A stretch of DNA of 64,000 nucleotides, from the NCBI GenBank assembly GCA_046482545.1, contig JAWOEX010000024.1, positions 1 through 64,000 on the forward strand, in the 5' to 3' direction. Source of the DNA: Candidatus Thorarchaeota archaeon. GTDB lineage: Archaea > Asgardarchaeota > Thorarchaeia > Thorarchaeales > Thorarchaeaceae. Every line of letters starts with the position of its first letter. Position 1 is the stretch's first letter. Below the pieces are notes generated by a model. It saw nothing but the letters and a program-made list of their open reading frames with translations, did no database searches and was not told the origin of the DNA. Of this stretch, positions 3,095 through 27,351 are shown one piece after another. A program made the translations under genes and the position numbers.

Positions 3095-3177
3095 TGAATT
3101 GCTAGACAGAACCTAATGGAATACTCTATAGGCCCTTAATTACTCTCGTACTCAAGAGAATAATTGAGGTCCTTAGC

Positions 3178-4691: not shown

Positions 4692-4760
4692 GGGGTTATA
4701 GCCAAGCTTTTATCATCTTGCTGGAAACTGGCTGATTATCTCCCCGGAGTGAAAAAGGAT

Positions 4761-8213: not shown

Positions 8214-8215
8214 AA

Positions 8216-8734
8216 ATGACTGAAGCATGGGGAACCCTCAAATCATTTGCAGGTAAGACCCTCGAAGCCCTCGACCCCGAATTCACTGAACATGTTTCCC
8301 GACTTATCGGGGGTCAAGACTTGACCGCTTGTTTCCAGTGTGCGAAGTGCAGTGCTGGGTGCCCAGTGAGTGATAAAGTGAATGTACAGATTCACGAAGT
8401 TATGCGAATGCTGGTCATTGGGCTGCCTGAAGTCCTTGATACCGACATGATTTGGCTGTGTACGACATGTTACACTTGCCAAGAACGTTGCCCGCAGGGA
8501 ATCGATATAACCGACATACTCTTCGGGCTGAAGAATATGGCATTCAAGAGAGACAAAGCCCCCCAGGGATATGTTAGTTCAAGACAGCAGCTCTATGATA
8601 CTGGAAAGCTCTATCAGCCAACTGATTGGGAACGAGAAGACCTAGGTTTGGAGGACGTACCTGACTTGGATTTAGATGAAACCAAGAAAATGTTTGAGAA
8701 AACTCGCTTGCTCAAACTAGAGGAGGATGAGTAG
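8216..8734 (+). CDS. hdrC: Heterodisulfide reductase subunit C (second copy)
   Basis: CFQCAKCSAGCP, WLCTTCYTCQERCP. Confidence 0.9.
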   Translation: MTEAWGTLKSFAGKTLEALDPEFTEHVSRLIGGQDLTACFQCAKCSAGCPVSDKVNVQIHEVMRMLVIGLPEVLDTDMIWLCTTCYTCQERCPQGIDITDILFGLKNMAFKRDKAPQGYVSSRQQLYDTGKLYQPTDWEREDLGLEDVPDLDLDETKKMFEKTRLLKLEEDE

Positions 8735-9611: not shown

Positions 9612-9618
9612 ACTCTCT

Positions 9619-10530
9619 TCAAAGTGGAATGTCTGGCAGAGGCTCTCTTCTTTCAATCCAACCGTCCGGAATTCCTTCTCTTCCTACTCTGCTAGCCACT
9701 ATCCCGCCAACCATGGCGCAGGTCGTATCGATATCTCCCAGTCCACTAGCGGTATACCAAAGTGCCTCTTCATAATCGTCTAGATGCAGTCCAGCGCACC
9801 ACAGAACAAACGGAACCGTATCAAAGGTAGTTATCTTCGAGCCATTTCCGATTCTGCTAACGACCTCTCGTATGGGAATATCAGGATTCAAACTCAAGGC
9901 TTCCAAGATTGCTTTACGTGTTATGCTATCTGGTACAGTTTCAAGTATTTGCTCTATGAATTCATGAACATTGGGCGGTCTATCTTCTCTCGTCTGATAT
10001 GCCAATGCAGCACCAGTAGCAACCGCTATTGCTCCGGCTGTTGCTTCAGAATGGGCATGAGTTACTTGCGCGGATTTCGCTGCATTCTCTGCCACCGCGT
10101 CCAAATCTGTGGCAAAATATGCTCCAACAGGGGCAACGCGCATTGAAGCACCATTACCGTATGACCCTTCCCCGCCGAAAAGGCTGTCAGCTACTTTCTG
10201 CCAGTCTTCTCCTTTTGAGATTCTTGGGAGAGCTTCGTGCATTCCCCTACCGTATCCCCTTCTAGGATTATAATTCTCACAAAAGCTTTGGATAAGTGCA
10301 TCTTGATCGATTTCACCATGTTCCTCTAGTATTGAGACTACGGACATCGCCATCATGCTGTCATCAGTATATTGCCAAGGGGCTGGAGGTAGCTTCCTTT
10401 CCTCTATCCAATTCTCAGATATTCTTCGTCGGTCAAAAAACATCTCACCAAAAGCATCTCCAAGTGACAGCCCCTCCAAGGATACCCTTGCTCTCCCAAT
10501 TTGCTCCGATAAGTCATGCTCACTATCCAT
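9619..10530 (-). CDS. ADP-ribosylglycohydrolase (DraG/ARH family)
   Basis: GDAFG, YTDDS, SYGNGASMRVAP, GDIDT motifs. Confidence 0.9.
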   Translation of the reverse strand: MDSEHDLSEQIGRARVSLEGLSLGDAFGEMFFDRRRISENWIEERKLPPAPWQYTDDSMMAMSVVSILEEHGEIDQDALIQSFCENYNPRRGYGRGMHEALPRISKGEDWQKVADSLFGGEGSYGNGASMRVAPVGAYFATDLDAVAENAAKSAQVTHAHSEATAGAIAVATGAALAYQTREDRPPNVHEFIEQILETVPDSITRKAILEALSLNPDIPIREVVSRIGNGSKITTFDTVPFVLWCAGLHLDDYEEALWYTASGLGDIDTTCAMVGGIVASRVGREGIPDGWIERREPLPDIPL

Positions 10531-10633
10531 AGAATTGCACCATGATCCTTTGTTTCAAAATAACCCCATGTACTCTTTTAGTCTTGGGTGCACATCATCA
10601 ATCCAATTGCAGACAGTATGCCGCAAAATGAGA

Positions 10634-11206
10634 TTATTCTTGCATTTCGTTTTCGCCGTAGAAAAGTTCTCCGAGATGTCGCATTGCCTCCTTGACACAC
10701 TCGTCTGATCCGCTAACCTGCAGATGCCTTTCTCCGTCCAAAGATATGAGAACCATACAGCTTTCTGCCAAGTCAGAAATGATCTCGACAGGTATTTCCT
10801 CTGGTAATCGTATTCTGAAGAAGCTGATGTCTTTATCCCGCGGAAGATCAGAGATTTGCGCCTTCGACTCTTCGGGGGCAGGGTCAATGTTGCCGTGTAC
10901 GGCGTTCTGAAACCGTTCTTCCCATGACTCCCTGTATTCTTTTCCTCCTTCTCGTTCCGCCCACATCATGAGGGTCTCTCGCGTGCGGTCGACTTTTCCC
11001 TGCATCTCCTCTTGAAGTGCAGCATCACGTTGTTCCATCTGTCTGATGTCTTCATCAAATGAGCTGAGGTATTCTATTATCATCTTGGAACTACGGAGGT
11101 CTTTGTAGGTTGTATCCGGGGGACTGAAACTATGCTTCGATTTCAAATCTCCAAGCAAGTCATTGAGAACCATCCATCCTGCACGTATGCCCTCGATTGA
11201 TGCCAC
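10634..11206 (-). CDS. DUF2096-like archaeal protein
   Basis: N-terminal WMVLNDLL.DL..K..DLRSSK pattern; co-oriented directly after hdrA. Confidence 0.6.
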   Translation of the reverse strand: MASIEGIRAGWMVLNDLLGDLKSKHSFSPPDTTYKDLRSSKMIIEYLSSFDEDIRQMEQRDAALQEEMQGKVDRTRETLMMWAEREGGKEYRESWEERFQNAVHGNIDPAPEESKAQISDLPRDKDISFFRIRLPEEIPVEIISDLAESCMVLISLDGERHLQVSGSDECVKEAMRHLGELFYGENEMQE

Positions 11207-11212
11207 CTATAC

Positions 11213-14200
11213 TCACTCCCTCAACATTTCTTCAATCTGTTGCAAGAAGCTCTCTTCTCGCCACCAGCGTAGGTCCCGTGCACCTGTTGGACAGATTGCA
11301 CAACAAGCACCGCATCCTTCGCAGCGAAGTTCGTCAGTTCGGCTCTTCTTTACTCCAGGTTCTACTTCAACCATCGATACTGCATCGTATGGACATATTT
11401 CCGAGTAGTTACACAGATCGCAACCTACACACAGATCTTGGTCAACTTCTGCAACCAATAGCTCAATTTCCACCGTACCCAGATTCAATGGAGCACAGGC
11501 TGCACTTGCTGCTCCTCGTGCTTGGTTAATCGAATCTGCAACATTCTTCGCATAGGTTACACCCAAAAACACGCCAGGGATATTAGTCTCAACAGGCTTG
11601 AATTTCATGTGCATTTCTCTCAGGAATCCATCGGCTCCTCGGGTAATGCCTATCGCTTTCACTAGTTCATCCACATCATGAGGTGCTTCAAGGCCAACAG
11701 CTAGCACAACCATATCTGATTTGATTTTCAACGTTTTCTGTGATAATGTGTCATACATGGTGACAATTGCCCTTTCTCCGTCCTCAGTTGGCTCAACTTG
11801 CGGCGGATTTTCCCGCACCCATCGCAGATAGCTGACGCCTTTCTGCCTGTTCTCTCTCCACATCTCCTCCATTCCATTAGCGAATGGTCTGATGTGTTCC
11901 TTGTAGGCTGAGAATACCCTGATATCCGGGAACATTTCCTTCAGCTCGTTCTGCATGGCTATGACAGCAGAACAACAAACCCTGGAACAATATCTGTTTC
12001 CTTCACCCGGGCTCTGTCTTGATCCGACACAATGAATGAATATTGGATTCTTTGGCGGCTCTTCAAGCTCCCCATTCTTCAACATCCGTTCAAGTTCAAG
12101 GGTCGTTATTACCGCAGGAGTTTGTTCCCATCCATATTCACCGTCTTCAGGGTCATAGGTGTCTGTTCCTACGGCAATTACCATGGATCCTATCGTATGG
12201 CTAGTTCGTTCACCGTTCTGATTCTCCAGAGTGATTATATAGTTCCCATATGTTCCATCGCGAGCTACGGGTCTCGAGTTAAGAATCACTTCGATTCTAT
12301 CTTGTTCTTCAACCCTAGCTATCAGATTATCTACGATTTCCTGAGCGTCAACCATTTCTGGGAATAGCCTGTAGAGATCGTTGAGTCTTCCACCTAACCT
12401 ATCATTCTTCTCCACTAGGATGACATCAAAGCCTTTTCGTGCGACATCGAGTGCGGCAGTCATTCCAGACACTCCTCCTCCGACCACCATACAAACCGGT
12501 GTCACCTCGACTGTTTCAATAGGTACCTCTTCATTATTGATTGCCTTGGCCACGCCGCTTCGAATCATATCTTGGGCCTTTTCTTGACGCACTTCGGGGG
12601 GGTCATTTGCGTTAACCAGTGTGAGTTGCTCACGAAGTCCCACTGGACCAACTAGGTAGTACCCCGACAATCCTGCAGCTTCAAGTGCCGACCTGAAGGT
12701 GTCCTCGTGCTGCAATGGTGAACATGATCCTACTACGACTCTGTTTAGATTGTGTTCTTTGATGGCCTCAGTAATAAGCTCCTGACCTGGGTCACTGCAC
12801 ATGAAGATGTAGTCGGTACTATAGGCAACATTCGGCAAATCACCGGCCCAATCAGCCAATGCAGGCGAATCAATCACATCGCCGATAATTCCTCCACAAT
12901 GGCATATGAAGACCCCTACTCGGGGCTCATCGCCCACTTCAATTGGTGGTACTTTCTCTTGAGGCTCTGGTTCCGGTACTGGTAATATGGACTCTGCAGC
13001 CATCGCTGCTCCCTTGCCCTCATTTACTGTATCGGTTCCATCCTTTGGACCATGAATAGTACCAGCCATGAAAATACCTGGTCGGGTAGTTTCGAGTGCA
13101 GCTGAATTGGGATTTTTCTCTTTGACCCATCCAGTCGGTTCGAGTTCAATATCCAAAATCTGTGCGAGTTCCTTGTACCCTTCTGCCGGTCTGAAACTGG
13201 AATTCAAGACTACCATTTCAACACTCAGTTCCTGAATTTCTCCGGCCTCCGTATCCTCAATTTTGACCATCAGATTGTTTGTATCGGGGTCTTCATTGAT
13301 TTCCGCTGCGCGTCCCCGGATGAAGTTGATAGCTTGGTTGTGCTGGCTATCCCAAAGAAACTCTTCAAGGGCTTTTCCACAAGTCCTCAAATCCATGTAC
13401 GAGTAGTAAATCTTGCAGTGATCTTCCGGATAGTGCATACGGGTAACTTGAGCCAGCTTCAATCCAAATGAGCAACAGACTCGGTTACAGTGATTGCTAT
13501 ATCCCTGAATGTTTTCTCGCACATCTCTTGAACCAACACAATTGACGAAGAGAATAGATTCTGGTTCCTTACCATCCGATGGCCGTACCATATGTGCATC
13601 TGTTGGTCCGGTAGGATGTGTCTGTCTATCGTATTCTAATGTTGTGACAACATTAGGAAATACACCATACCCGTACTCCGCATAATCCGTAGGGACGTAT
13701 TCCTGAAAACCTGCTGCGTTGATAATTGCTCCCACATTCAAGTCATATTCCGTGTCTTCATCGTCGTAGATGATACAGTCTTGGGGGCAGACTCCTGCAC
13801 ATGTTCCGCACCCTATGCAGGCATCTTTGTCTATGGTGGCAACAAGCGGAATCTGTTGCGGAAAATTCATGTATATGGCTTTACGAAGTGAAAGTCCGCC
13901 ATCATATTCATTTGGGACCTCTACAGGACACGACTTGATACAGAGTCCGCATCCTGTACACTTGTCTTCATCTACATAACGAGCTTTCTTGTGTACTGTG
14001 ACGGTGAAATCCCCTGCTTCGCCCTCCACCTTTTTTACTTCAGATAAAGCATGAATCGTGATATTCGGGTGCTTTCCAACAAAGGATGTGAGTGGAGTCA
14101 TAACACAAGCAGAGCATTCCAATGCGGGAAAAATCTTGTAGATCGCCACATAAGCTCCACCGATATTAACCGTGCGCTCTATGAGATGAGCGTGATGTCC

Positions 14201-14311
14201 ACCTTCTGCAAGGGCCAGAGCTGCATTGATACCACCCATTCCTGCCCCAATAATGGCCACATCAGTTGGTTTGGACTTGGCAGAATGTTCGTTGCTGTTA
14301 TCGCTGACCAT
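11213..14311 (-). CDS. hdrA: Second large tandem-type HdrA
   Basis: GAGMGG and GGGVSG FAD motifs, KIFPALECSAC, CVGSRD, CNRVCC, CHCG, multiple ferredoxin motifs. Confidence 0.92.
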   Translation of the reverse strand: MVSDNSNEHSAKSKPTDVAIIGAGMGGINAALALAEGGHHAHLIERTVNIGGAYVAIYKIFPALECSACVMTPLTSFVGKHPNITIHALSEVKKVEGEAGDFTVTVHKKARYVDEDKCTGCGLCIKSCPVEVPNEYDGGLSLRKAIYMNFPQQIPLVATIDKDACIGCGTCAGVCPQDCIIYDDEDTEYDLNVGAIINAAGFQEYVPTDYAEYGYGVFPNVVTTLEYDRQTHPTGPTDAHMVRPSDGKEPESILFVNCVGSRDVRENIQGYSNHCNRVCCSFGLKLAQVTRMHYPEDHCKIYYSYMDLRTCGKALEEFLWDSQHNQAINFIRGRAAEINEDPDTNNLMVKIEDTEAGEIQELSVEMVVLNSSFRPAEGYKELAQILDIELEPTGWVKEKNPNSAALETTRPGIFMAGTIHGPKDGTDTVNEGKGAAMAAESILPVPEPEPQEKVPPIEVGDEPRVGVFICHCGGIIGDVIDSPALADWAGDLPNVAYSTDYIFMCSDPGQELITEAIKEHNLNRVVVGSCSPLQHEDTFRSALEAAGLSGYYLVGPVGLREQLTLVNANDPPEVRQEKAQDMIRSGVAKAINNEEVPIETVEVTPVCMVVGGGVSGMTAALDVARKGFDVILVEKNDRLGGRLNDLYRLFPEMVDAQEIVDNLIARVEEQDRIEVILNSRPVARDGTYGNYIITLENQNGERTSHTIGSMVIAVGTDTYDPEDGEYGWEQTPAVITTLELERMLKNGELEEPPKNPIFIHCVGSRQSPGEGNRYCSRVCCSAVIAMQNELKEMFPDIRVFSAYKEHIRPFANGMEEMWRENRQKGVSYLRWVRENPPQVEPTEDGERAIVTMYDTLSQKTLKIKSDMVVLAVGLEAPHDVDELVKAIGITRGADGFLREMHMKFKPVETNIPGVFLGVTYAKNVADSINQARGAASAACAPLNLGTVEIELLVAEVDQDLCVGCDLCNYSEICPYDAVSMVEVEPGVKKSRTDELRCEGCGACCAICPTGARDLRWWREESFLQQIEEMLRE

Positions 14312-14536
14312 CTACGATTACTCCAGGTTTGATGTGCACTATTTTTCGTTTTCCTGTTTGAGATATAACACTTCTGAAATGGGTTGTCTGAATATTTGAT
14401 GGTTAACCTTCAAAGCTTTATAATAATCGGCAACGACTACTTGAAGCTATAGTATAAGTATGCTAATGCTATCAATTGCTCATCATACTATGGAGCCCCT
14501 CAGCAAGTCGGTAGCATATACAGGAGTTGACCTCGC

Positions 14537-15547
14537 GTGAGATACGTCAAAATGACAACTGCAAACACCTTCAAGTTCCTCTCGTATCTGAAGGAAAACG
14601 TGACACTCTACGCTCCCACCAAGATTTCTCAACAATTCTATGATTTCACAGAGATTGATGATGTAGATGCGGTGGAGTTCAACTACAATCGAACGATACG
14701 CCCTCCACGGCGTCTATTTTTTCCGGAGGAGGAAACAATGTTCCGCTTTGATACCGACAAAGTTGAGCTCTATGAGAATACCCCTCGTGAAGGGAGATTC
14801 GTGGTTTTTGGTGTGCATGCATGTGATGTTGTCGGTCTGCGAATACTGGATGCCGAGTTCATTGATGAGCAGCCTGACCCTTACTACATGAAGAGACGAG
14901 AAAAGGGGATTATCATTGGTCTATCATGTTTGCCCGATGAATACTGCTTCTGCAATGTACGCAGGACCGAGTTTGTGGACAAAGGTTTCGATCTCTTCTT
15001 TCATGAGATAGAGGACGGATATTTGGTGCGTGTAGGGACAGTGCAAGGCCACAAGCTTCTGGATCCAAAACCAGAGCTAGTCGATGAGATAACACAGGAA
15101 GATATCGATTACATGGAGGATTTCGAAGAAAAACGGAGTTCCATGTTCACTGTGCAAGGCAACTGGGATTCGTTGAGGTATTTCTTGGAGTTGCGCCTAG
15201 ACCATGCCATGTACAACCGGGAGAGCGAGAAGTGCTTGGGCTGTGGAAACTGCACCCTTACGTGTCCTACTTGCAGGTGCTATGATGTAAAAGATGTCCC
15301 GAGTATCGACGGCAAGACGGGTGAACGTATTCGCTTCTGGGATTCCTGTCAGTTCAGATCACATGGATTGGTGGCGGGACCACACAACTTCCGTCCAACA
15401 AAGGAATCGCGATTCAAGAACAGGTATCAGTGCAAAAATGCTTATTGCGAGGAAGTAACCACGGCCTATTGCGTTGGATGCGGAAGATGTACCTATTACT
15501 GTCCAGCGGAAATTAATTTCAAGCGTAATTTAATGGAGCTATCATAG
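14537..15547 (+). CDS. hydB: Group 3b [NiFe]-hydrogenase (sulfhydrogenase) beta subunit; last codons supplied by the island junction
   Basis: FGVHACD, CLPDEYCFC, CLGCGNCTLTCPTCRC, WDSCQ, CVGCGRCTYYCP. Confidence 0.9.
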   Translation: MRYVKMTTANTFKFLSYLKENVTLYAPTKISQQFYDFTEIDDVDAVEFNYNRTIRPPRRLFFPEEETMFRFDTDKVELYENTPREGRFVVFGVHACDVVGLRILDAEFIDEQPDPYYMKRREKGIIIGLSCLPDEYCFCNVRRTEFVDKGFDLFFHEIEDGYLVRVGTVQGHKLLDPKPELVDEITQEDIDYMEDFEEKRSSMFTVQGNWDSLRYFLELRLDHAMYNRESEKCLGCGNCTLTCPTCRCYDVKDVPSIDGKTGERIRFWDSCQFRSHGLVAGPHNFRPTKESRFKNRYQCKNAYCEEVTTAYCVGCGRCTYYCPAEINFKRNLMELS

Positions 15548-15548
15548 A

Positions 15549-16234
15549 ATGTGTACTGTGTCCATCGAGCATAGCAAAAAAGGCGTTAAGGTAAGAAGAG
15601 AATATGATGAAAAGGTTGAGGAAACTGTTATTGGTGGTTCTTTTTCCGTGAATGCTGGAATTGATTGTATAAACCTTGGAGATTTGCAAAATTGCAAAAA
15701 GTTGTCTGAGAACCGTTACTGTAACAACTCTAAAATCATCGATATAAGTCCGCTAAAGGAATACTCTAACCCGCATGAAGTAAATCTGGGTCGTAACTCA
15801 TCTGAATATGTGAACTTAACCTCTTTTTCCTTCTGCAAAGAACTACAGAGAATCGCATCAAATTGCTGTAATAATCTTAGATCGTTAGTACTACATAATA
15901 ACAAAATTGAAGAATAGATTTGGATTCTCTATCAGTTTGTAAGAAATTACGTAGTCTGGTGTTGGATGTCAATAGACTTGATAATCTTGACCTATGTTCA
16001 TTGAAATATTGTCAGGATTCTGAACGATTTTCTGTTGATAATAACCGCCATTCAATAGATATCTCCCCGCTCGAAAACGGTGATAGAATAAAGGACGTCA
16101 TTCTTGATAGAAACAAATTGCCAGAAATAGGAGAACCATGGTTCCGATACCTGTCGAAAAATCGCGAGCTACATTTATTAGTAGGTTCCCTACCCACTAT
16201 CGCGGCTTGTATATGTATCTGCATTGGAGCGTAA
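15549..16234 (+). pseudogene. Frameshifted leucine-rich-repeat protein
   Basis: IDISPL..NLRSLVLHNNKI / LRSLVLDVNRL repeats; one missing base near 15912 (GAA GAA [A]TA GAT TTG) splits the two ORFs; low GC. Confidence 0.75.
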
Positions 16235-16441
16235 GTAATGCGGTATGTGACGAGCCACACTTGTTCTGAACCAAGTTGTATGTGCAGTCCTCGGGCCGTT
16301 TGTACTTATTCTCCTTCTGAATTCTGTCCGAGGAATAGACATGACTAGACGAATCCACCTAAGAGAAATCGTGATGACTGATATCATCACTGGAATGATA
16401 CCGGCACCAGCACAGGGTGTGCACTCAGGAGGGGGCACAGA

Positions 16442-19084
16442 ATGAGGTTCCATGCCAAACGTGTGAACAAGTTCCTCTCCATAACCCTTGTGCTGACGCT
16501 GTTCTTCATGTCACTTCATGTTGTAACAGCTGCTGGTTCTGCTAACGATGAAGACACCATTTCAACACCTGAGTATATCATGGATTGTTATGATGGTGTC
16601 GGGTTTGCGGATAGACCTGGCGGCATATCCGACCTGCAATCGACCCTTGACGCTGTCACCCTCCTCATGGAAACCGAGGAGAAGTGGCCGTACGGTTTGT
16701 GGCATATGATCGAAAGCGTTGTGACACGCTACAAAAACATGCAATCCCCGTATCTTAACGGTTTTGTACAGGGTAATGTGTCTCGGGATCACCCTGATTT
16801 CCGCACAACTGCCCTTATTCTTGAGACACTTAAGGCATTGGGAAGACTAGATGCAGTTGACCTTGAAAGAGTTAGACGGTATCTGAAGGCTAGTTTCCAT
16901 GAGTCCCTTACCATGGATCTCTGGCTCACAGAGGGCGATTTCGACCAAAAGTACTGGGCACTCAGGACGGCTGCCGCGATAAATAATGTTGAGATTTTGG
17001 GTATCAAGAAGATAGATTTGGGGCGGATTATCGGTCCTGATGCGAACAGGGCTGACTTCCCGGAAGACGAAACCTACCTACGATGGGGTGAGGAACATTT
17101 TGAGGGGAGTATCTACGGAGGGTTCTCCGAGGAGCCGGAAGATAAGCAGTTCAAGATAATCGACTCGTTCAGCATGATGCTCAAGGAAAAGGACTATGCG
17201 AGAACTATCGCACCTCTTTTGGTGGATTCAGAGGCATTTGTTGATGACATCCTTGAGGGTCTGGCTCAGGAAAGTGCTATCATCGAGAATAGTAACGGTG
17301 AGAAGAATCTCCGCCGGACAGCAAGAGTATATGACATACTCAACAAGACAGGATTGTTGGACAAACCCTTCAGTGATGGGACAGGTGCATACAGAGCAGT
17401 ACATACACACGATTATCTAACACAGGCAAAGGCAAACCTCCGAGGTGGTTTCAGCGACAGGACAACCTCACTTTCTGACCTCCTGTATATCCAAATCCTA
17501 CAAGAAGTGCTTGACAGAGCTATCAATAGCAGGGCCGCGGTATTTTCTCCAGTGTTCTCAGACTCAAACGGAGCCATCCTTGCGAGTGGTGACGAGGCAT
17601 CTGAAACCTTGACAACAGGCATAGAAGAATGGAGTGTGGATTATGATGATATCGTTTATGTTCCCGAAATACTGTTGGAGAATCAAACATCGAAAGACAA
17701 CAACCCTTCACCACTCCCGTTCTTGATTCTGATGTGTTCGCTCATTGGCAGCGTGATAGCATCAGGAGTGCTGGGTGAAAGGAACCTTACAATTTTCCTC
17801 TCGATATGCCTCATTATCCTGTTCGTGGTCCAAACAGGGTTCAGTGTAGATCAAGTTCTCAGGGATGTATCCGCCTTCGTGTCTGAATCATTCTCTAAAG
17901 CTCAACAAACACAACTGGAAGATTCGCTTGGAAACAGTATGCTCTCTATTGGAACACAGTGGCTTGACCTAGACTATTCGGGGCCATCAGAACCAAACGA
18001 GGACCACCAGTTAGAAGAAGACACTCCAGAAACGATGCCTAAACAAATGACCCCCGCAACAGTCAAGGCTTTAGACTCAATAGAGGTCGAAGTTGATATT
18101 CGTCTGGAGATATATCCAAATCTCATAAGGTTAGCAAAAAAACTTTCGAATCTGTTTATCCAAACCGATGATGGAAGATATGATCCAAATATGGTTTGGG
18201 ACATGATAAATACTAAAATCAAAGAAACCGAAAGCTCTACCATTACATTTGGAGAGGGGAATGATATGGTAAGTATGAGTGGTGAAGCAGTCAGGGATTT
18301 TCTAAGTTTTGTAGAAGGATATGAGGAAGTTAGAATACGGGACATATTGGCAGTGCTTGAGAGAGTAGCGAATATTGAATTACAGGGAGAAGAACCTGTA
18401 CTCATCCGGAATCTAGCTCATGATATGAGTAAGAACACCGCAAGAAATCTGGATGGTCTGTTGATGTTGCTAGAGGCTATCGAGGACGGAATAGGCTCCT
18501 TAGGTGACAGTGGTGTGACTGTTGAAATTATATATAACGAGAATGCCATGAAAGAAATTAATGCGATGGTTAAAAAAATCCATGGTGTTTTTCCCCTTGA
18601 TAACAAACAACGTAAGGATATTAGAGAACTAGGATTCCGCATTCATGCGCGTATGGAGGCCGCAGACCTATGTGGTGACAAGACGAATCTTCTAATAAGA
18701 ATCGAAAGAGAAGAGGGATCATACCAAATTATCCGCGACAGCTGGGGTATGGAGATACTTCGACAATGTCTTCCGCAGGGAGATTCTATCGCAAACACAT
18801 TACTACAGAATTATGGAAATAATATCTATGAAATTCTCGGGGAACAAATTCCGTTTCATTTGCAACTAGGTGATACAACCTATACCTATGCTTGGATGTA
18901 TTCCGCAGCCGCTATGCTAAAAGATATTGAGCAAGACCCACGTGTTGATTATTCAGCACGATTATCTTTTGGTAATCTTGAATTGCCGGATATTATACGA
19001 GATGCATTGGACATCGTGATAGATGATATAGCGTCGGATGAAGTGAGGAGAAATTGGGAATCACCCTTCCTTCAAGGGGGGTGA
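16442..19084 (+). CDS. Secreted/membrane protein with prenyltransferase/squalene-oxidase-repeat-like N-terminus and two TM helices; probable N-terminal part of a giant protein
   Basis: Signal-like N-terminus, GFADRPGG..DLQSTLDAV and PDFRTT..LETLKALG repeats, hydrophobic segments ~aa 425-470. Confidence 0.65.
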   Translation: MRFHAKRVNKFLSITLVLTLFFMSLHVVTAAGSANDEDTISTPEYIMDCYDGVGFADRPGGISDLQSTLDAVTLLMETEEKWPYGLWHMIESVVTRYKNMQSPYLNGFVQGNVSRDHPDFRTTALILETLKALGRLDAVDLERVRRYLKASFHESLTMDLWLTEGDFDQKYWALRTAAAINNVEILGIKKIDLGRIIGPDANRADFPEDETYLRWGEEHFEGSIYGGFSEEPEDKQFKIIDSFSMMLKEKDYARTIAPLLVDSEAFVDDILEGLAQESAIIENSNGEKNLRRTARVYDILNKTGLLDKPFSDGTGAYRAVHTHDYLTQAKANLRGGFSDRTTSLSDLLYIQILQEVLDRAINSRAAVFSPVFSDSNGAILASGDEASETLTTGIEEWSVDYDDIVYVPEILLENQTSKDNNPSPLPFLILMCSLIGSVIASGVLGERNLTIFLSICLIILFVVQTGFSVDQVLRDVSAFVSESFSKAQQTQLEDSLGNSMLSIGTQWLDLDYSGPSEPNEDHQLEEDTPETMPKQMTPATVKALDSIEVEVDIRLEIYPNLIRLAKKLSNLFIQTDDGRYDPNMVWDMINTKIKETESSTITFGEGNDMVSMSGEAVRDFLSFVEGYEEVRIRDILAVLERVANIELQGEEPVLIRNLAHDMSKNTARNLDGLLMLLEAIEDGIGSLGDSGVTVEIIYNENAMKEINAMVKKIHGVFPLDNKQRKDIRELGFRIHARMEAADLCGDKTNLLIRIEREEGSYQIIRDSWGMEILRQCLPQGDSIANTLLQNYGNNIYEILGEQIPFHLQLGDTTYTYAWMYSAAAMLKDIEQDPRVDYSARLSFGNLELPDIIRDALDIVIDDIASDEVRRNWESPFLQGG

Positions 19085-22000
19085 ATCCTCTACTTGTTTC
19101 ATGTAAACAAACGGGAGAACAAATAGAATCAAATAATATTGAATCCCATGGTTTCGTATGTTCATATGGTCTAAAGGGTGACAAGATTAAAATTGGTATG
19201 CGATTCTACGATAATGGTAGGTATACAAAGGGGTATGACAAATCCGTACGGGAACTTAAAGTACAAAGAAACGATGTATCCTTGAAGGATGTTCTTGATT
19301 CTGCTTCAACTAAAGGATATGCGTCACCAAGTATCTATACTATTGTACAAGGAGAAAAGAAGATTCCCGCAGTTTTCACTCTTAGCGAAATCAATATTGA
19401 TGGAAGTCAGATTGATTTGAATGCCTTGGTGGGTCGGAAATACAGCCAACTCAGAAAACAGGTGACGGATGGTAAGATACCTTCTGGGATTTTGGTGTGG
19501 CTATCAACTAACGGTATAATTAAAGAAGGATCTACAGGAAGACTGGAACCTAATGACGATTTTATTATTGAGTATATCGACAAATATTCCAAAAATAAGA
19601 TTACAAATCTACCGGAAGGTATAAAGAAAATTGAGGATGTGGCGGGAGGACCGTTTAGTTACGACGATAGTGTAGAGTTGGACATCAATTTGGAAGAAGA
19701 AACATTGAGAAGGATTGCAACAAAAACGATTGGACATTCACAAAACAAGCCTGAATTTAAGCGGGTACATGTCTGTAATGACTGGGGTGGTACAGTAGAC
19801 CTAATGTCACAGGGTTCTGCCGATAGACGCACTAATTCATACATGGCGAAGTTATATGATTTTTTGGAATATCTAAGACAAAACAAAGGTAAAACATTGG
19901 AAACAAAAACCGAAAAAGTGTATCAAACATTAACGAGAACACTCATTGAATCACGACCAAAGGGTATAGACAATTATCGAATTGCTAGAGGAAAAGACTC
20001 TTTTCTTCATTCAAATGAATTATTAAATACCCGAGATGAAATTGTCTTTTCTTTAATGGCACTTGGTAATGCCATACCCGGAATGGCATATGATAACATG
20101 GAGATTAGGCATGTTCTGCCAGCACTGGCGGGGGTGAAGCTTAACGCCGATGATTCACTAATAGGCCCGGAGTGGGATTCGGTAATAGATAAAATGAAGA
20201 AATGGGCTCCAGGTGCCTACGCAGATGTAATGTCATCACTCTATGGTGGGGCCAAAACGACTAGAACAGGTACTCGGTCACAACTTCTACTTCAAGAAGC
20301 TCCAATAGATCACAATCTCAAGGTACGTTCATGGGTAATTGGTGATGAGATATATGTACAGGTCGTTGACCACTACTATGTATCTGGGAAAAAAGGTGAT
20401 AATCTCCTCATGGCAGGGGGTGTGGAGGCTCTTGATGGTTTTTCTTTGCAATGTGTCTTTGATGCTTCGAAGATAGAGAGATTATACCTCAAAATATTCC
20501 AAGATTGCGCTTCTTTGAATACATGGATGAATCCTATGTCCCTTAGTGATTGTCAGAACGCAGGTAATAGAATATACTTGCCCCATATAGTTGCATTGGA
20601 TCCTAACATGCAGTACAGAATTGCACTAGAAGTTGTTGCTGGTAACATGGACAGAGAAGAACTATCCGAGTTAGGAGATATCATATATCAAATAATGATG
20701 CGTGTAAATGATTATACGAAAAAGGATATCATAATGGAGGAATTGGGAAAAGAATTTAGCACCGAAAAAAAAGGATGGCATCTACATCATAATGAACCTG
20801 TGTATACGGTAGATGGGCGGGAATTCGTAGGCTATCTGAGAGGGATGACAAAAGATGCATATGAGCTTGCTGCTGTGAAGCTGAAGATACAAATGTTGGA
20901 TGCCGCAATTAGGTCAGGCAAAATTGCTCCTTCTAAAATGGAAGAAACTATGGAACACATAGAGGGCTTGGCCTATGAAGCTATTCAGAGAGAAAGAGTA
21001 CTAAAGTCATATTACGAATCTAACAAAAAGAAATTCGAGGCAGTACAGGGTAGCAAGGGAGGAGATAAGCGAATCAAAATAGGAAATAAGCTTCTTTGGA
21101 ATTTCTATGGTCAAAATGACATTGTTGCACAGAACGCGTTTATTGCCATTAAAGTTATAGCTGATACTGATATTAGTGAAATGGTTTACTTAGAAGATAT
21201 AAACGGCAAACCATTGAACAGAATGGGCAGTTATATCGAACATCCACAAGGAATACATTCGCGTAATCAACTGAAAGGTCATATGGGTCTTGTGACCCAC
21301 TTCAAGCCTGCCGCAGCAAAAATGGTGGGAAGGACCACGATGTTCAGAGGGTATGATATAAGGCACATAGATGAAGGTGATGATAACAAAGACTACCGTC
21401 TTGGGGCATTTAAAGATGATAAACTGGAATATTATGTGGATTGGAGTGTAACAGATACAACTATGCATACTACTGGAAGGCGTTCCAAATACAATGTTGA
21501 AATCGATGGAGTAGTTAGCTACGATTCTCGGTTCCTATTTACCGTGAAGGAACCGATTTCAGAAAACACAATTTGTGGTTTCGAGTTCTATGTATTTGCT
21601 CAATCGCACCAGGCTGGAGGTTGGCACCCTGACTCGATTAATTACGAGTATTTGAAAAACACACCTGCTGGTCTCTTCAGTATATTGATGGATAAAGGCG
21701 GTGCGGCTATGGGAGTATCCCGTCAACCTGCAATCATGACTGAGGGGGGTTTCGAATTACATTCAAGAAATTGGAAAGCACAGAAAGTGAAGAGTCTAGG
21801 TAATATCAAATTCTTCTCGGTAAATTCGATAAGCGAACTATTCGATGCGGGTATTGTTGAAAAGATGGAACTCTGGAAACATATAGTTGAACACTCCAGA
21901 CTCAATCCGGGACCTTACACTTCTGGTGTTGATATTGACCTCCTTCACTCTTGGATTTCATGGTACAGGAATCGCTACGATGACAGTCCCCACCTATTCA

Positions 22001-25000
22001 CACGGAACATCCCAGTACAAGTGGAACAATTCGACACTCTTGGTATCCAAGAAGATCTGCAATCCTCAATAGCATCATGGTTTGCCGAATTACTTCACAA
22101 CGATAGCATGTCTGATACCCTGAAAGAAATCAAGCTTCAATCTGTTGCATACAAACACATGGGCCTAGAAGAGCTCTGTGATGACTGGGCATATCCACCG
22201 TATCAAATTGCAGAATGGCGCTACACCGGCATGGACGAGAAGGCGTGGTACACAGTCGGTGACAAGTCCCAAGCCCTCTACACGGCACGATTCGGAACAA
22301 CCGACATTACTCAGACCGTCAACATAGACATCGAACCAGACCGAACCATGAAGGTTGACAAGATCCAGCTGTTCCTCACAGAGCTGGGCGATATCTACAA
22401 CAATACCGTAGAGTTTCGTGTCGAGGTATCAGACGGTAGTGATGTAGTCACCGGCAGCACGATACTCACAAAGGAAGGCGCAGTTGACATCCCTCTGGAC
22501 AGACAGCTTGAGGTTTCCGATGGTGACACCCTCTACGTTACCATACCCATACAGGATACAACCGGCCGAACGTGGCTCTTTGACAGCAATATGCTCAGCA
22601 GACTGTACAAGAAACGTGCCGGACAGTTCGAGGTAGATGGAAGAGAGCTACCGGGTCACTCCATGTACGTTTCTATCCATGATGCTGAGAAGGCATCGAT
22701 CATCGGTTGGCAGAAGACCGGCACCCGGTTCGAGACCGGCATAGATGATGATGTAAACATGCTCATCGGCGATGGAATAAACTTCCTGAACGCACACTTC
22801 ACAAGCTACCCAGAGGATAAACTCCCCCGGACAATCATCGCAGCAACCAATTTCGACTCGGAGACCAACACGACCTACATCAAGTATGAGGAGTACAAGT
22901 ACGAAGAGACACAGATCTACAGCGATATTCCTGGTAACCGGGCAAAGGAGACACCTATCTACGTCTACGGCAAAGAACTCCCTGTTGATTACATCGGTGC
23001 CGGCCTGAGCATTTCTGGCTACCCGAATGTCAAGAGCATCTCCCATTCACGCGTCATCGAACTAGTCTATGGCGGTGAACCGGGCGTCCTTGTCATAAAT
23101 ACCGAGATGATACCCTCACAACTGCTCGCAGTAAACGACAAAGGCATACCCAAGTTACGTGAATGGATTAACGCTGGCAACCAAGTGGTCTCGGCAGGTG
23201 TCTTACCCTTCTCAGAGACCATCGTCAACGGTGAACTCCACAACACCTACGATTTCCTGTTCCACACAGAGACATCAACCGTTGGAACCGACCGACTTGT
23301 AGAATTATCATATCAGGACGAAGCCGCAGCCGTCTGGTCTGACCCGATTCAAACCTACCAGTGTGAGAACCCGGGAGAGGCCAACGAGACTCATGTCTTG
23401 GACCTTGATGGTGAAAACGACGACTGGATATCCCTCAGCGGTAACAAGCGCAACGAGGATGGAAGTGTCACCTTTGTCTTCGCGATGGCACTCGATGACA
23501 TAAATGGCACATCAAAACAGTACCAGACCTTTGACCTGTTTGTTGATGGCATACCGATATTCTCCAACTTCGCAACAGATCAACTCTGCTATCTTGATGG
23601 TGGTCTCGATGCTGGCTCAAAGGTATTCTATGATGAATACATGAACAACCGGATGTTCGTACAGCATATAGAGAACGTGCCACGATCAACAACCAGTGAT
23701 GTGGTCTATCCCAATTACCTCTGTTACCTGACAGTACGTGAATCACTCAATGCCGGTCCGCATACGGTCACCATCGCAGACAATCCTGATAACAAGGGCT
23801 CACAAGAACTGCGGATCCTTGACCTGAACAATATCCTTGCCTACGAGTACAAGCATCACAAGGAGACCCTGCTTGCTATCGAATCACAGTATCAGGGCAT
23901 GCCGGAAATCGGTGCGGGTGTCTATGCTGTTACAGGCAAGGATATGGTGAGATGGAGCGAAGATGTGGGCCGAGAATCCTTCACCATGCAGAGTATGGTG
24001 GGCCTTGAACCAACCCGAACCGTCCTAGGTGTTGACCTCTCAGAAGCTCATCCGTACCGCACCTATGCAAAGGACATCACCAACAGCTACGGTGAGTGCT
24101 CGGTAAAGGTGGGTGCAGGAATGTTCACGATGCTTGACCTCTATACCTACGGTCTTGACTCGTACTGGCATACCCTTGCAGAGCTCAACTATGTCCTGAC
24201 AGGCGTGGTTGCCGACTGGTATAAGATGCACGACCAAGACACCGAGACCGACTTTTCACCGGGAGCAGGTGATGATTTCGAAGGCTTGCTTGTGGATGTG
24301 GGTGTTCCGTCTATTTCAGAAAACGTTCCGGGTGGCCTTGTTCCAGAACAGGATGCCAAGGCCAACGGCACATACGCCAATTCATTCGAGGAAACCGAGC
24401 CCTTGGAAACAACCAATGCTGACCTTGTATGGGATGATGGGCGTCTCTTGGTCAACTCGACAACGCAAGATACCTTCTCAGTTGACCTTGACACAGCGGT
24501 GGAAGGCTACGACTATCTCATGTTCGATATCTCCATGTTCAACTGTACGGTTTCACTCAATTCCACACAGGTCTTGGGCGAAGCTCAACCCGGACTCAAT
24601 ATCCTCAAGCTCCCCGAAGGACCGTACGATAACATCACTCTCGTAGCAACAAGGAACACAGGAAGTGCTTCTGGGTGGTTCAGGATCGAATGGATCTCTA
24701 CTTCTGAAGTGCCTGCCCTTGCTGGACCTTCGCAACTCTACATCCAGCAATTCACAACCAGCACCAACCTTACAACTACAGGTTTCGAAGATGATACACT
24801 CACAATTGCAGATGGCAACATGATACTCACGCACGGTCATGATGGCGACTCGGAAGACAATGATTCTGTCCACTTCAACCTCGCCGAACCAGTACATGGT
24901 GCTGGCCTGCTGCTCGACATGAAGCACCACATCAACACAACAAGTACAACAGGTGTGGAGCTTCAGGCAACACTCTACTCTCAAGCAAGCCGGGAGGGCA

Positions 25001-26748
25001 ATCAACAGACCATCTCTCTAGATATGGCCACGACAAGTATAATCGACAGGAATTCTCTCACGCTTGAAACAGTATCCTCTATCGAACTTAGCGTGGTATC
25101 TCAGATCTCCTCCTTGCCGCTCAACTGGACTGTTGATTATCTTGAGATCGTAGAGGATGGTGACGTGGCTCTGGATACTGTGTCGCCGTTATACACTGAA
25201 ACTACTGGTGCCGTGGAAACCATAACGGATGAAACCCTGACCATACGCAGCGATGGAACAACAACCGCAGAGGTTTACATCCCTGATATCGAATTCGACC
25301 TTGGTTTGTATCCCTACACCCATGTGAGAGTATCAAACCTGAATCTGACAAGTGCCAGTATCAGGCTCTGTACCTCAAACGGTAACTACACCCACATCAT
25401 CACTGATAACGAAACGACCGTGTTCACAGATGATGTGGATTCAGGAACGATTGTATCAGGCATCACGTTACTTGTCGGTTCTGATGGTCTCAATAGGACC
25501 ATGACCATAGACGACCTTGTGTTCTCTCCCATACAGGAGCCGATAGACGAACGTGTAAGTGTCCAACTGGAATATTCTACACAGAACGGTGACACCCTCA
25601 TAACCCTGGATGATTATCTCATGGACTGGGGTACGGGTACGCTCGCACTTTCCAATGATACCGAATCTGTTACGCGTGCGGAAACACAGATTGTGGAGTG
25701 GAATACCGAGTACATAGCACTCAGGCAAGATGTTGTCAACAGGAACGTCTCCGTCAATGCCGTATTCCACTTTGATGGCATCGTTGATGTCTCGGTTACA
25801 AGCGCGGACTATGGCATGACCTTTGCGCTCAACAAAAAAGCCACCAAGTACTCTGACTCCTTTGGTGTTATGCCCAACAACGTAACAGAGGAAATCCTGC
25901 GCTCACCAACCTTTGCCGCTTTGTACAGCTATGGCATAGGCTTTGGTGTTACAGGAATCAGTACAGAGCAGGTATCGGCATTCGTGGGCCAATCATCCTT
26001 TACCGTCAGTGCTATGGCAAACGAGAGTATCATGCTCCTGCCGGTACTGGCAGAGCGGTTCGAGCTCATCGATGGCGTGGAGATAGATCCCAACTTCGTT
26101 GTCGATTTCGAGGACATCGACATCACAGGCCTTCTGGACAACTGGGATGGCACCCTTGAGAGTCTTGATGTGGCTTACTGGCACGGGGCCTTCAAGGAGA
26201 ATTACGCACTAAAGCAGACCTTTCTGGATACGTCATACTGGATAGTGGATAACACTGGCCATGACATGACCACTGATGAGGCCCTTGACAAGACCAAGAT
26301 GGGTTGCACGAACGGCAAGATGAACATCACAGTCAATGCAAACCAGTCTGCTCTTGCAGAGACCGTTGTATTGAACCTCAACTATCTCTCTATCGATTCC
26401 TCTGCGTTCCCGTTCATGCGCCTTGTGCTTGACGGCACAGGCCACATATCCGTGTCTGTAAAACTCAATCTCACGGATGGCACAACATCTCACATCTTCC
26501 ATGTCACAAGCATCACACCAGAGGAACCAACAAGCGATGAGCGCAACCTCTACGTCCAGCTTATCGATGATGGTTGTGGCTACGAAGAATGGACCATTCA
26601 AGGCATCGAACTGTGGATGAATGAAACTGATACAAGCACGGTTATGAACAAGTCACGCGTCTCGCTCTCGTTTTCGAGGGATAAGCCGCTCGTTCTTATG
26701 TCAAGCTTCGGGGAGCTTGTGCTTGCCCCACGGGTGGTGAGGAGATGA
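19054..26748 (+). CDS. Very large hypothetical protein (2564 aa): AT-rich basic N-terminal region, acidic T/S-rich beta-type surface-protein-like region, PCNA-like C-terminal ~31 aa
   Basis: Uninterrupted 7.7 kb ORF; overlaps the upstream ORF in the -1 frame at a G6 tract. Confidence 0.75.
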   Translation: MGITLPSRGVNPLLVSCKQTGEQIESNNIESHGFVCSYGLKGDKIKIGMRFYDNGRYTKGYDKSVRELKVQRNDVSLKDVLDSASTKGYASPSIYTIVQGEKKIPAVFTLSEINIDGSQIDLNALVGRKYSQLRKQVTDGKIPSGILVWLSTNGIIKEGSTGRLEPNDDFIIEYIDKYSKNKITNLPEGIKKIEDVAGGPFSYDDSVELDINLEEETLRRIATKTIGHSQNKPEFKRVHVCNDWGGTVDLMSQGSADRRTNSYMAKLYDFLEYLRQNKGKTLETKTEKVYQTLTRTLIESRPKGIDNYRIARGKDSFLHSNELLNTRDEIVFSLMALGNAIPGMAYDNMEIRHVLPALAGVKLNADDSLIGPEWDSVIDKMKKWAPGAYADVMSSLYGGAKTTRTGTRSQLLLQEAPIDHNLKVRSWVIGDEIYVQVVDHYYVSGKKGDNLLMAGGVEALDGFSLQCVFDASKIERLYLKIFQDCASLNTWMNPMSLSDCQNAGNRIYLPHIVALDPNMQYRIALEVVAGNMDREELSELGDIIYQIMMRVNDYTKKDIIMEELGKEFSTEKKGWHLHHNEPVYTVDGREFVGYLRGMTKDAYELAAVKLKIQMLDAAIRSGKIAPSKMEETMEHIEGLAYEAIQRERVLKSYYESNKKKFEAVQGSKGGDKRIKIGNKLLWNFYGQNDIVAQNAFIAIKVIADTDISEMVYLEDINGKPLNRMGSYIEHPQGIHSRNQLKGHMGLVTHFKPAAAKMVGRTTMFRGYDIRHIDEGDDNKDYRLGAFKDDKLEYYVDWSVTDTTMHTTGRRSKYNVEIDGVVSYDSRFLFTVKEPISENTICGFEFYVFAQSHQAGGWHPDSINYEYLKNTPAGLFSILMDKGGAAMGVSRQPAIMTEGGFELHSRNWKAQKVKSLGNIKFFSVNSISELFDAGIVEKMELWKHIVEHSRLNPGPYTSGVDIDLLHSWISWYRNRYDDSPHLFTRNIPVQVEQFDTLGIQEDLQSSIASWFAELLHNDSMSDTLKEIKLQSVAYKHMGLEELCDDWAYPPYQIAEWRYTGMDEKAWYTVGDKSQALYTARFGTTDITQTVNIDIEPDRTMKVDKIQLFLTELGDIYNNTVEFRVEVSDGSDVVTGSTILTKEGAVDIPLDRQLEVSDGDTLYVTIPIQDTTGRTWLFDSNMLSRLYKKRAGQFEVDGRELPGHSMYVSIHDAEKASIIGWQKTGTRFETGIDDDVNMLIGDGINFLNAHFTSYPEDKLPRTIIAATNFDSETNTTYIKYEEYKYEETQIYSDIPGNRAKETPIYVYGKELPVDYIGAGLSISGYPNVKSISHSRVIELVYGGEPGVLVINTEMIPSQLLAVNDKGIPKLREWINAGNQVVSAGVLPFSETIVNGELHNTYDFLFHTETSTVGTDRLVELSYQDEAAAVWSDPIQTYQCENPGEANETHVLDLDGENDDWISLSGNKRNEDGSVTFVFAMALDDINGTSKQYQTFDLFVDGIPIFSNFATDQLCYLDGGLDAGSKVFYDEYMNNRMFVQHIENVPRSTTSDVVYPNYLCYLTVRESLNAGPHTVTIADNPDNKGSQELRILDLNNILAYEYKHHKETLLAIESQYQGMPEIGAGVYAVTGKDMVRWSEDVGRESFTMQSMVGLEPTRTVLGVDLSEAHPYRTYAKDITNSYGECSVKVGAGMFTMLDLYTYGLDSYWHTLAELNYVLTGVVADWYKMHDQDTETDFSPGAGDDFEGLLVDVGVPSISENVPGGLVPEQDAKANGTYANSFEETEPLETTNADLVWDDGRLLVNSTTQDTFSVDLDTAVEGYDYLMFDISMFNCTVSLNSTQVLGEAQPGLNILKLPEGPYDNITLVATRNTGSASGWFRIEWISTSEVPALAGPSQLYIQQFTTSTNLTTTGFEDDTLTIADGNMILTHGHDGDSEDNDSVHFNLAEPVHGAGLLLDMKHHINTTSTTGVELQATLYSQASREGNQQTISLDMATTSIIDRNSLTLETVSSIELSVVSQISSLPLNWTVDYLEIVEDGDVALDTVSPLYTETTGAVETITDETLTIRSDGTTTAEVYIPDIEFDLGLYPYTHVRVSNLNLTSASIRLCTSNGNYTHIITDNETTVFTDDVDSGTIVSGITLLVGSDGLNRTMTIDDLVFSPIQEPIDERVSVQLEYSTQNGDTLITLDDYLMDWGTGTLALSNDTESVTRAETQIVEWNTEYIALRQDVVNRNVSVNAVFHFDGIVDVSVTSADYGMTFALNKKATKYSDSFGVMPNNVTEEILRSPTFAALYSYGIGFGVTGISTEQVSAFVGQSSFTVSAMANESIMLLPVLAERFELIDGVEIDPNFVVDFEDIDITGLLDNWDGTLESLDVAYWHGAFKENYALKQTFLDTSYWIVDNTGHDMTTDEALDKTKMGCTNGKMNITVNANQSALAETVVLNLNYLSIDSSAFPFMRLVLDGTGHISVSVKLNLTDGTTSHIFHVTSITPEEPTSDERNLYVQLIDDGCGYEEWTIQGIELWMNETDTSTVMNKSRVSLSFSRDKPLVLMSSFGELVLAPRVVRR

Positions 26749-27101
26749 AGATGATACCGGATGCGAGATCTACCGGGAAGCAGAACGATATCGAGTATAA
26801 CGGTTTCTGGAAGCCAGCTAACAACAAGCCTGTAGGGGAATATGTCCTTGTCTGGGTTTCGGACTGGCTCAAGCAGGACTGGGGCTTCTACTGCTACATT
26901 GCTCTTGATAGGCATAGGCAGGACCTCAAAGGAATCCACGCCCTGATTTACAAGCTCAATTGCCACGGGGTCGATGTATACGTTGAGCTGGTTGACCATT
27001 CGCTGGGATTGAGGGAGTTCTACAGCGAGCAATACAACAGGAACAGGATATCACACTATCATATCCTGAAGCCGGAGACATGGACGGGTGCTATCAGATG
27101 A
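26745..27101 (+). CDS. Hypothetical protein (island)
   Basis: ATGA overlap with the giant ORF; SD-like GAGGAG. Confidence 0.55.
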   Translation: MKMIPDARSTGKQNDIEYNGFWKPANNKPVGEYVLVWVSDWLKQDWGFYCYIALDRHRQDLKGIHALIYKLNCHGVDVYVELVDHSLGLREFYSEQYNRNRISHYHILKPETWTGAIR

Positions 27102-27221
27102 GATTACACGAGATTGGTGGGAGGTAAAGATATGCGAGGAAAACTAACGAAGAAACAACTAGATGAACTGAAGCATAACATCAAAGAAGCATTGAGTTTC
27201 ATAGGTTTCGCGGCAGATGAA

Positions 27222-27297
27222 ATCATCACCATCGGAAAGACTATATAATTAAGACCCACGCCCATCATCACCATCGGAAAGACTATATAATTAAGAC
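27222..27297 (+). repeat. Exact 34-bp tandem direct repeat, each copy with a BRE/TATA-like motif
   Basis: ATCATCACCATCGGAAAGACTATATAATTAAGAC at 27222-27255 and 27264-27297, 8-bp spacer. Confidence 0.9.
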
Positions 27298-27306
27298 TCC
27301 TGCTAC

Positions 27307-27351
27307 CGTAATTTGATGGAAATAGGTGGCTATCAGGGGGTTAGTAAGTAA
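27307..27351 (+). pseudogene. Displaced original 3' end of hydB (RNLMEIGGYQGVSK*)
   Basis: Same RNLME peptide as the hydB end; stop overlaps the hydG start (TAATG). Confidence 0.8.

Follow-up and report, generated by a model that had tools for sequence, protein, structure and literature searches.

PCNA genes have been described on the Asgard archaeal viruses Opia, Nidhogg and Skoll (PMC11529989) and on the 10H_0 and 7H_42-like mobile genetic elements (MGEs; bioRxiv 10.1101/2021.07.29.453957). Here we examined a giant open reading frame (ORF) of 2564 aa, P0003, whose C-terminus resembles that of PCNA and which is located on an 11.8-kb integrated element (referred to as the island) of a Candidatus Thorarchaeota archaeon. 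The analysed stretch (referred to as the window) covers positions 1 to 64,000 of contig JAWOEX010000024.1 from assembly GCA_046482545.1. The fusion is very probably the scar of a microhomology deletion or recombination in a decaying element, with a tail that probably has no clamp function.

As on the Asgard viruses and MGEs, a divergent, full-length, two-domain PCNA is found here on integrated or mobile elements together with small proteins of the zinc-finger type (the Cys-rich ORF175 and 78-aa ORFs). Unlike the Asgard viruses, however, these elements show no capsid, terminase, integrase or replication gene in their visible parts, gave no sequence relative in a scan of IMG/VR and were found in one genus only, while the PCNA gene of the window is down to 33 codons. 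When compared with canonical archaeal PCNA (Pyrococcus abyssi, PDB 6T7X/6T8H), the tail matches the final two beta-strands with the LAPR terminus, but the giant protein has no other PCNA similarity, and the paralogues that resemble the tail most are only 23-28% identical to canonical PCNAs, with a shorter loop in the terminal hairpin. Like site-specific archaeal elements with short attachment (att) repeats, the island has 14-bp repeats, replaces the 3′ end of a gene and has matching empty sites in sister species and in the sampled population, although it lacks an integrase gene and contains mostly decayed cargo. Finally, the giant protein shares a module (residues 2083-2534, 27-48% identity) and a signal-peptide-like N-terminus with the Thorarchaeota giant secreted proteins P0006 and P0019 ('DUF2341 domain-containing' / 'carbohydrate binding domain-containing'), but ends one third along their ~10,000 aa, without the hydrophobic C-terminal end of the complete protein from genome G054.

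The PCNA-type tail and its donor

The window belongs to a 3.05-Mb assembly (G000, 98.9% complete), which was compared with two other species of the genus (G001 and G002). The features on which the fusion rests are the following:

19054..26748, plus strand: giant ORF P0003, 2564 aa, from a truncated protein of a ~10,000-aa secreted family, of which it forms the middle part; no Pfam match
26646..26655, plus strand: fusion junction, a sharp change from giant-family to PCNA-paralogue sequence, with N-K-S codons common to both parents
26647..26748, plus strand: PCNA-derived tail, 33 codons (NKS...LAPRVVRR) and a stop codon; 29/33 residues identical to the paralogue on contig C141 of G001, 30/33 to P0020 and P0023
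3178..4005, plus strand: divergent PCNA paralogue P0004, 275 aa, with a full-length match to NCBIfam NF002221 (E 7.5e-15); a relative of the donor family, not the donor

Translation of 26653-26748 yielded SRVSLSFSRDKPLVLMSSFGELVLAPRVVRR followed by a stop codon, and translation of 3910-4005, at the end of P0004, yielded SRVTLEFDTNRPLALKFRFGKLILAPRVLRE followed by a stop codon. The original prediction had reported 17 of 31 residues to be identical between these termini, ungapped and with the stop codon at the same position, and BLASTP returned precisely this match (E 2e-7) while revealing no further similarity between the two proteins outside those last 31 residues. Because the canonical PCNAs of this archaeal family end in LAPRVER[RK], LAPR could also be upheld as a PCNA C-terminal signature in this setting. 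Among all six-frame ORFs of at least 30 aa in the 3.05-Mb genome, a PCNA-type LAPRV terminus was convincing in only three, being the canonical PCNA on contig C28 (which ends in LAPRVERR), P0004 and the giant ORF.

The tail is a relic of an element-borne PCNA paralogue, of which it retains the final two beta-strands with the C-terminus, including the C-terminal beta-hairpin ending in LAP[RK]. The two domains of a sliding clamp (~245-275 aa) were not found in the giant protein, as Pfam detected no family in its 2564 aa, and the phmmer match of the paralogue P0020 was confined to its last 34 residues. AlphaFold2 prediction of residues 2235-2564 from a 10-row alignment (mean pLDDT 57.9, ~30 in the tail) gave no usable model of the tail.

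A third PCNA paralogue, intact and 270 aa long, was located on contig C141 of the sister species G001, directly upstream of a homologue of the 118-aa gene (ORF118) that follows the giant ORF in the window. Nucleotide comparison (blastn) of this locus with window positions 26646-27083 revealed 81.3% identity over 438 nt, reaching through the tail into the ORF at 26745-27101, and no DNA similarity upstream of 26646. Likewise, a base-by-base alignment showed no more than random similarity before position 26646 and high similarity starting at GAACAAGTCACG. The G001 paralogue ends in WPNKSRVSVSFSKDKPLILTSSFGELVLAPRVVRR, its metagenomic variants P0020 and P0023 being slightly different, and the last 33 residues of the giant protein agree with these three variants at 29-30 of 33 positions, with only one position (M for T) unlike all three. 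In the region of the joint, the paralogues read WPNKSRVS. These alignments indicate that the tail is homologous by descent to the terminus of a PCNA paralogue at the DNA level, and that its donor is the third, element-borne paralogue family and not the P0004 type. The tail predicted earlier therefore stands, but starts two codons before the proposed position 26653, at the N-K-S codons from 26647. Its attribution to the PCNA type located 23 kb upstream had to be abandoned, since the actual donor family is only 41-44% identical to P0004 (over the full length).

The donor family itself is clearly of PCNA descent. P0020 matched the archaeal PCNA profile NF002219 of NCBIfam over its full length (E 1.2e-16, profile positions 10-244 of 247) as well as the solved PCNA structure 6t7x (E 2.6e-10), and the G001 paralogue scored above the gathering score of Pfam PCNA_N (32.6 bits), which P0020 and P0004 did not. 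Both P0004 and P0020 are far below the curated NCBIfam cut-offs and are therefore regarded as divergent paralogues rather than equivalogs. P0004 matched the canonical PCNAs of related genomes at 23-30% identity. In the other genera of the family that were searched, it matched a single PCNA at 21-30% identity, besides two weak matches in G024. A PCNA tree with weak support and three wrongly extracted rows gave a rough indication of two divergent groups apart from the canonical PCNAs, and the divergence is taken from the pairwise identities, not from this tree. No relatives of P0020 were found in a scan of metagenome contigs, and a divergent-PCNA alignment found no match in genome contigs or IMG/VR, although these scans may omit records near the genome of the window, so that absence is not implied. 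The genome of the window itself contains no intact copy of the third paralogue.

At the joint, both parent families share N-K-S/T, amounting to ~10 nt of microhomology. Since the window stems from a metagenome assembly, and since multi-copy ORF118 modules elsewhere lie at contig ends (position 1 of both G000:C20 and G001:C141), the junction might in principle be a chimera in which the giant gene at full length and an intact PCNA gene, each from another molecule or strain, were wrongly joined. This is extremely unlikely, however, as the junction is bridged without a single difference by Logan contigs of two sequencing runs, namely a 3,824-nt contig of X2 (23285-27108, with a left arm of 3,361 nt and a right arm of 463 nt) and a 689-nt contig of X1 (26029-26717), which also supplies the spanning sequence data around 26640 that had been called for. 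Moreover, no loose end was present at 26646 among the loose ends listed for the Logan contigs of X1 and X2, the ~10 nt shared at the joint are too short to mislead an assembler with k=31, and the genome holds neither an intact third PCNA paralogue nor a second giant module. Because contigs from two individual runs bridge the joint, a binning or scaffolding artefact is excluded and the junction is real.

The truncated giant gene

Immediately upstream of P0003 lies a further large ORF:

16442..19084, plus strand: 880-aa ORF, the N-terminal part of the giant gene, with a signal-peptide-like start and a weak alpha/alpha-toroid match; aligns to the first ~540 residues of relatives

The 880-aa and 2564-aa ORFs are divided by a G6 tract (19076-19081), and one added G would merge them into a single ORF of 3,435 aa. 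An extra G at 19075 is indeed present in Logan contigs, being found in the only X2 contig over this site and, at 2.9/7.1 depth, in X1. In addition, a 1,435-aa paralogue on contig C20 of the same genome aligns across the split without a break. On this evidence, the two ORFs are one gene, and the difference between G6 and G7 reflects either phase variation or a consensus error.

A HMMER search with the last 600 residues of P0003 against 1.84 billion representative proteins revealed 13 homologues of the giant module besides the protein of the window itself. None of their matches extends beyond query position 572 (approximately residue 2536), while the tail starts at query position 568, and none of the 13 carries the tail, for which P0020 was the sole other match in this protein set. 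At the breakpoint the homologues read ...ELW.-E-....NK[ST], and those that are not cut short go on with V-x-F-D-E-L-x-I-Y-R-I-x-G-W and then a conserved domain, RIFQWRERVGYSS. These uncut homologues extend from 130 to more than 3,000 residues past the breakpoint.

Open frames bearing the module were found in four other genera of the same family and measure 2,781 (cut by the contig end), 9,749, 9,987 and 10,138 aa. Residues ~940-2534 of P0003 are colinear with residues ~1750-3300/3400 of the long frames of other genera, and all alignments to those frames stop at residue 2534, with the homologues running up to ~6,800 aa further. With the two ORFs joined, residues 1-539 and ~1804-3405 of the gene align to residues 5-536 and ~1723-3295/3408 of the proteins from G042, G054 and G096. 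The window gene is therefore colinear with the ~10,000-aa family, but lacks the native distal domains and C-terminus that would make it full length. One relative, that of G054, is complete and has a hydrophobic stretch at its C-terminal end, and a signal-peptide-like N-terminus is present both in the window protein and in the ~10,000-aa relatives. The alignments to the long frames, together with this shared start, thus indicate that the window gene represents the first third of a ~10,000-aa secreted protein. The long frames are located at G042:C81 1016-31429, G054:C28 151-30111 (minus strand) and G096:C25 2-29248 (minus strand); three of the four other-genus frames stop at or beside contig ends, and that of G042 is preceded by a leucine-rich-repeat (LRR) protein, like the giant gene of the window.

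These data also bear on the idea that the giant family has the LAPR motif as a C-terminal signal of its own, be it native or convergent, that is unrelated to PCNA. Apart from the existence of the motif nothing speaks for it, whereas homologues natively ending in the motif were looked for and every homologue found passes the breakpoint without it, and the DNA homology to the PCNA locus continues unbroken into the downstream gene. This explanation is already refuted.

The island and its relatives

The island (15524-27320, 11.8 kb) sits in the 3′ end of the gene for a hydrogenase iron-sulphur (Fe-S) subunit, with a 14-bp direct repeat on both sides. Its remaining features are:

15524..15537, plus strand: left copy of the 14-bp repeat, CGTAATTTAATGGA, in the 3′ end of the Fe-S subunit gene (14537-15547), where synteny with G001 and G002 breaks
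27307..27320, plus strand: right copy of the 14-bp repeat, CGTAATTTGATGGA, where host sequence restarts
15549..16234, plus strand: two ORFs of 122 and 104 aa, fragments of a frameshifted LRR-protein gene with weak Pfam LRR matches
26745..27101, plus strand: ORF118, 118 aa, a conserved multi-copy marker of the element family, its ATG overlapping the TGA of the giant ORF
26707..26756, plus strand: 50-nt invariant block, 100% identical between G000 and G001, spanning the last PCNA codons, the Shine-Dalgarno-like motif GGTGAGGAG and the ORF118 start

The repeat reads CGTAATTT[A/G]ATGGA, and in the whole genome the 14-mer occurs at 15524 and 27307 only. Positions 15538-27306 are absent from G001 and G002, where the flanking genes abut. 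Moreover, an empty-site joint (15514 to 27310) was present in both X1 and X2, with 12 nt in place of 11,795 nt and a k-mer depth of 14.5 and 9.4, as compared to 2-9 over most of the island. Because the empty-site form occurs in the same two sediment runs, the island represents a true insertion, whose presence varies within the sampled population. With its end repeats, an uninterrupted target in relatives and related copies at several genomic sites, it has the properties of an integrated element, although Pfam revealed no integrase or recombinase domain in the ORFs of the island or in the visible ORFs of the sister elements, which are cut by contig ends.

Much of the island is in decay. The LRR gene is frameshifted (blastx to the LRR proteins of C20 and C141 proceeds in two frames) and approximately half its normal length, intact relatives measuring 483-521 aa; the giant gene is split and truncated; the PCNA gene is down to 33 codons; and ORF118 alone is intact. 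Just inside the right repeat, at 27222-27297, lie two tandem ~34-bp copies containing GGAAAGACTATATAA, the first of which overlaps the final part of a 38-aa ORF (27132-27248); this ORF is conserved in the sister elements.

Copies of ORF118, 71-78% identical, were found on G000:C20 and on contigs C50, C40 and C141 of G001, with broken copies on G001:C99 and in G002, which amounts to two in G000, four to five in G001 and one remnant in G002. Among 86 genomes of the family, ORF118 was found in this genus only. It has no match in Pfam, PHROG or NCBIfam and no usable neighbour in the ESM Atlas, and scans of JGI metagenome contigs and IMG/VR revealed no relatives. Run X3, a hypersaline lake metagenome from another study, contained only two 151-nt pieces of ORF118 (within window positions 26758-27085), with one difference each.

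The 50-nt block stands out from a surrounding alignment that is 81% identical, with a chance of ~0.01 for an identical run of this length. The 3′ end of the PCNA gene may accordingly hold translation-initiation and coupling signals for ORF118, and deletions that spare this end and close the upstream frame at its native stop would then be those that persist. Elements without PCNA offer a parallel. When L013 2183-3345 (from G001:C141) was compared with L025 747-1742 (from G000:C20), L026 and L027, the PCNA-less elements on G000:C20, G001:C50 and C40 were found to lack exactly L013 2213-3018 (~806 nt), and their ORF118 starts with the PCNA N-terminus MTDG.VNTAV (MTDGRVNTAVTET...). This exact gap, together with the PCNA N-terminus on ORF118, indicates that PCNA has been lost at least two times in this element family, by apparent in-frame deletions that kept ORF118 translatable.

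The element on G000:C20 (L025 1-8584) has the same orientation as the island and carries, in this order, an LRR gene (483 aa), the giant-N-terminus paralogue (1,435 aa), ORFs of 131, 78, 78 and 175 aa, and ORF118. Its giant paralogue is 53% identical over 1,334 aa, and its DNA 83.5% over 1,855 nt (window 16132-17984). The element on G001:C50 (L026 7037-14378) occupies the same host site and has the ORF175-ORF118 end in common with it, but carries other cargo, namely a 543-aa protein and a 598-aa NosD/beta-helix protein, which suggests a cassette-like exchange of large secreted-protein genes between elements. ORF175 and the other small element ORFs have no match in Pfam, PHROGs or NCBIfam. The small ORFs at L025 1215-1742 and 1853-2089 (minus strand) are Cys-rich (CPFC...CSCG and CPHW...CAHC), which suggests a zinc ribbon.

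Such exchange leaves another route to the same scar, in which two elements recombined with each other or an LRR-giant cargo was inserted into a resident PCNA gene. The unlike cargo at the homologous sites of G000:C20 and G001:C50 shows cargo exchange to be frequent, and a 32-nt inverted match between window positions 16133-16164 and L013 2088-2119 hints at other recombination points. However, in G000:C20 one element already holds both the giant-N-terminus paralogue and ORF118, with order and orientation as in the island, making a single deletion the simpler route. A deletion also predicts the loss of the small ORFs that lie between them in C20, and these are indeed missing from the window. We therefore consider this other route unlikely.

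The P0004 locus is of a different nature. Window positions 184-15544 are colinear with G001:C141 and G002:C28, including P0004 and a 108-aa ORF just upstream of it. In each of the three species of the genus, this ORF (weak HARP match, E 0.004) and P0004 (together 2768-4005) form a pair at the same site, flanked by hdrB-like and hdrA-like genes. A two-gene module shared by both PCNA loci was considered and rejected, as the 108-aa HARP-like ORF is unrelated to the ORF175 upstream of the element-borne PCNA. The original prediction had assigned both islands to one family of PCNA-carrying elements; the relatedness of the PCNAs holds, but P0004 is not part of a variable island. Because its site is conserved in all three species, the link between the two islands is one of PCNA relatedness only.

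Origin and meaning of the fusion

What is established here is where the breakpoint lies, which family donated the tail, that the giant gene is truncated, that the junction is real and that the island is an insertion with a presence/absence polymorphism. As to the events behind them, the ancestral element would have carried, in one orientation, an LRR gene, a ~10,000-aa giant gene, a few small genes, a divergent PCNA gene and an ORF118 overlapping the PCNA stop codon. One illegitimate recombination, most simply an internal deletion, would then have joined the giant and PCNA genes at AAC AAG TC (N-K-S). Lost in this step would have been the giant gene's distal ~two thirds and the small genes, together with codons 1-237 of PCNA. 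It may also, as originally proposed, have taken away an integrase or replication module, although no integrase was seen in the visible parts of the sister elements. By chance the join fell in frame, so that the shortened giant ORF now continues over the last 33 PCNA codons up to the stop codon of PCNA. This relic was probably kept for its ribosome-binding region and the ATGA stop/start overlap serving ORF118, a constraint that would also favour an in-frame join. The in-frame fusion to an element-borne clamp tail that had been proposed is in this way borne out by the DNA of the donor locus, the truncation of the family and the bridged junction.

Several points weigh against this deletion scenario. 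The bridging runs X1 and X2 come from a single study and probably represent the samples from which the assembly was made, and hence do not represent independent biology. An ancestral element in which PCNA and ORF118 follow a giant gene of full length was not recovered, for which reason we infer the gene order before the deletion from the sister elements; in other genera the ~10,000-aa genes run up to contig ends, and a search for ORF118 there found none. That the retained segment serves translational coupling is likewise something we infer from sequence. Finally, the frame of 2564 codons is still open and the tail is one residue off the paralogue consensus, which fits either continued selection or a recent event.

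Selection might in turn indicate that the tail is a functional module, such as a beta-hairpin capping the last beta-sandwich domain or pairing with a PCNA-like protein. The in-frame fusion, the intact long ORF and the near-identity of the tail to the consensus of intact paralogues are in line with this, the replaced native segment also shows an alternating hydrophobic pattern of beta-strands, and AlphaFold2 placed a short strand at RVSLS (at very low confidence). Nevertheless, the fusion is known in one instance, 33 residues cannot make a clamp, an in-frame join has a one-in-three chance anyway, and decay is evident elsewhere in the island. That the segment is conserved can be accounted for by its past as part of a working PCNA and by the ORF118 start region inside it. 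Moreover, the signal-peptide-like start of the protein points to probable export, away from clamp partners, and makes a clamp-like function unlikely. A selected module is thus very unlikely, in agreement with the lower probability given to a functional fusion at the outset, and the deletion scar in a decaying element remains the preferred reading.

The mechanism is ordinary, and neither a new molecular mechanism nor a new protein function is involved; what is new is the element family and its giant cargo. The scar is a clean one: its breakpoint is resolved to the single base, both parent families have been identified, and a sister species preserves the donor intact. For annotation it serves as a warning not to take a 'PCNA-like C-terminus' on a giant protein for a domain. 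In wider terms, it indicates that integrated elements of Thorarchaeota shed genes via short-homology deletions, including ~two thirds of a ~30-kb giant gene, and it points to a genus-restricted element family with a PCNA lineage of its own and a giant surface-protein cargo that varies within one sediment population. We tentatively propose, at somewhat less than even odds, that PCNA, ORF118 and the small zinc-finger ORFs together mark a previously undescribed, integrase-less family of elements that is restricted to one genus, reshuffles giant secreted cargo and is polymorphic in the population. If this is true, the giant::PCNA fusion would be a snapshot of cargo trimming by microhomology deletion in which the expression of ORF118 was preserved.

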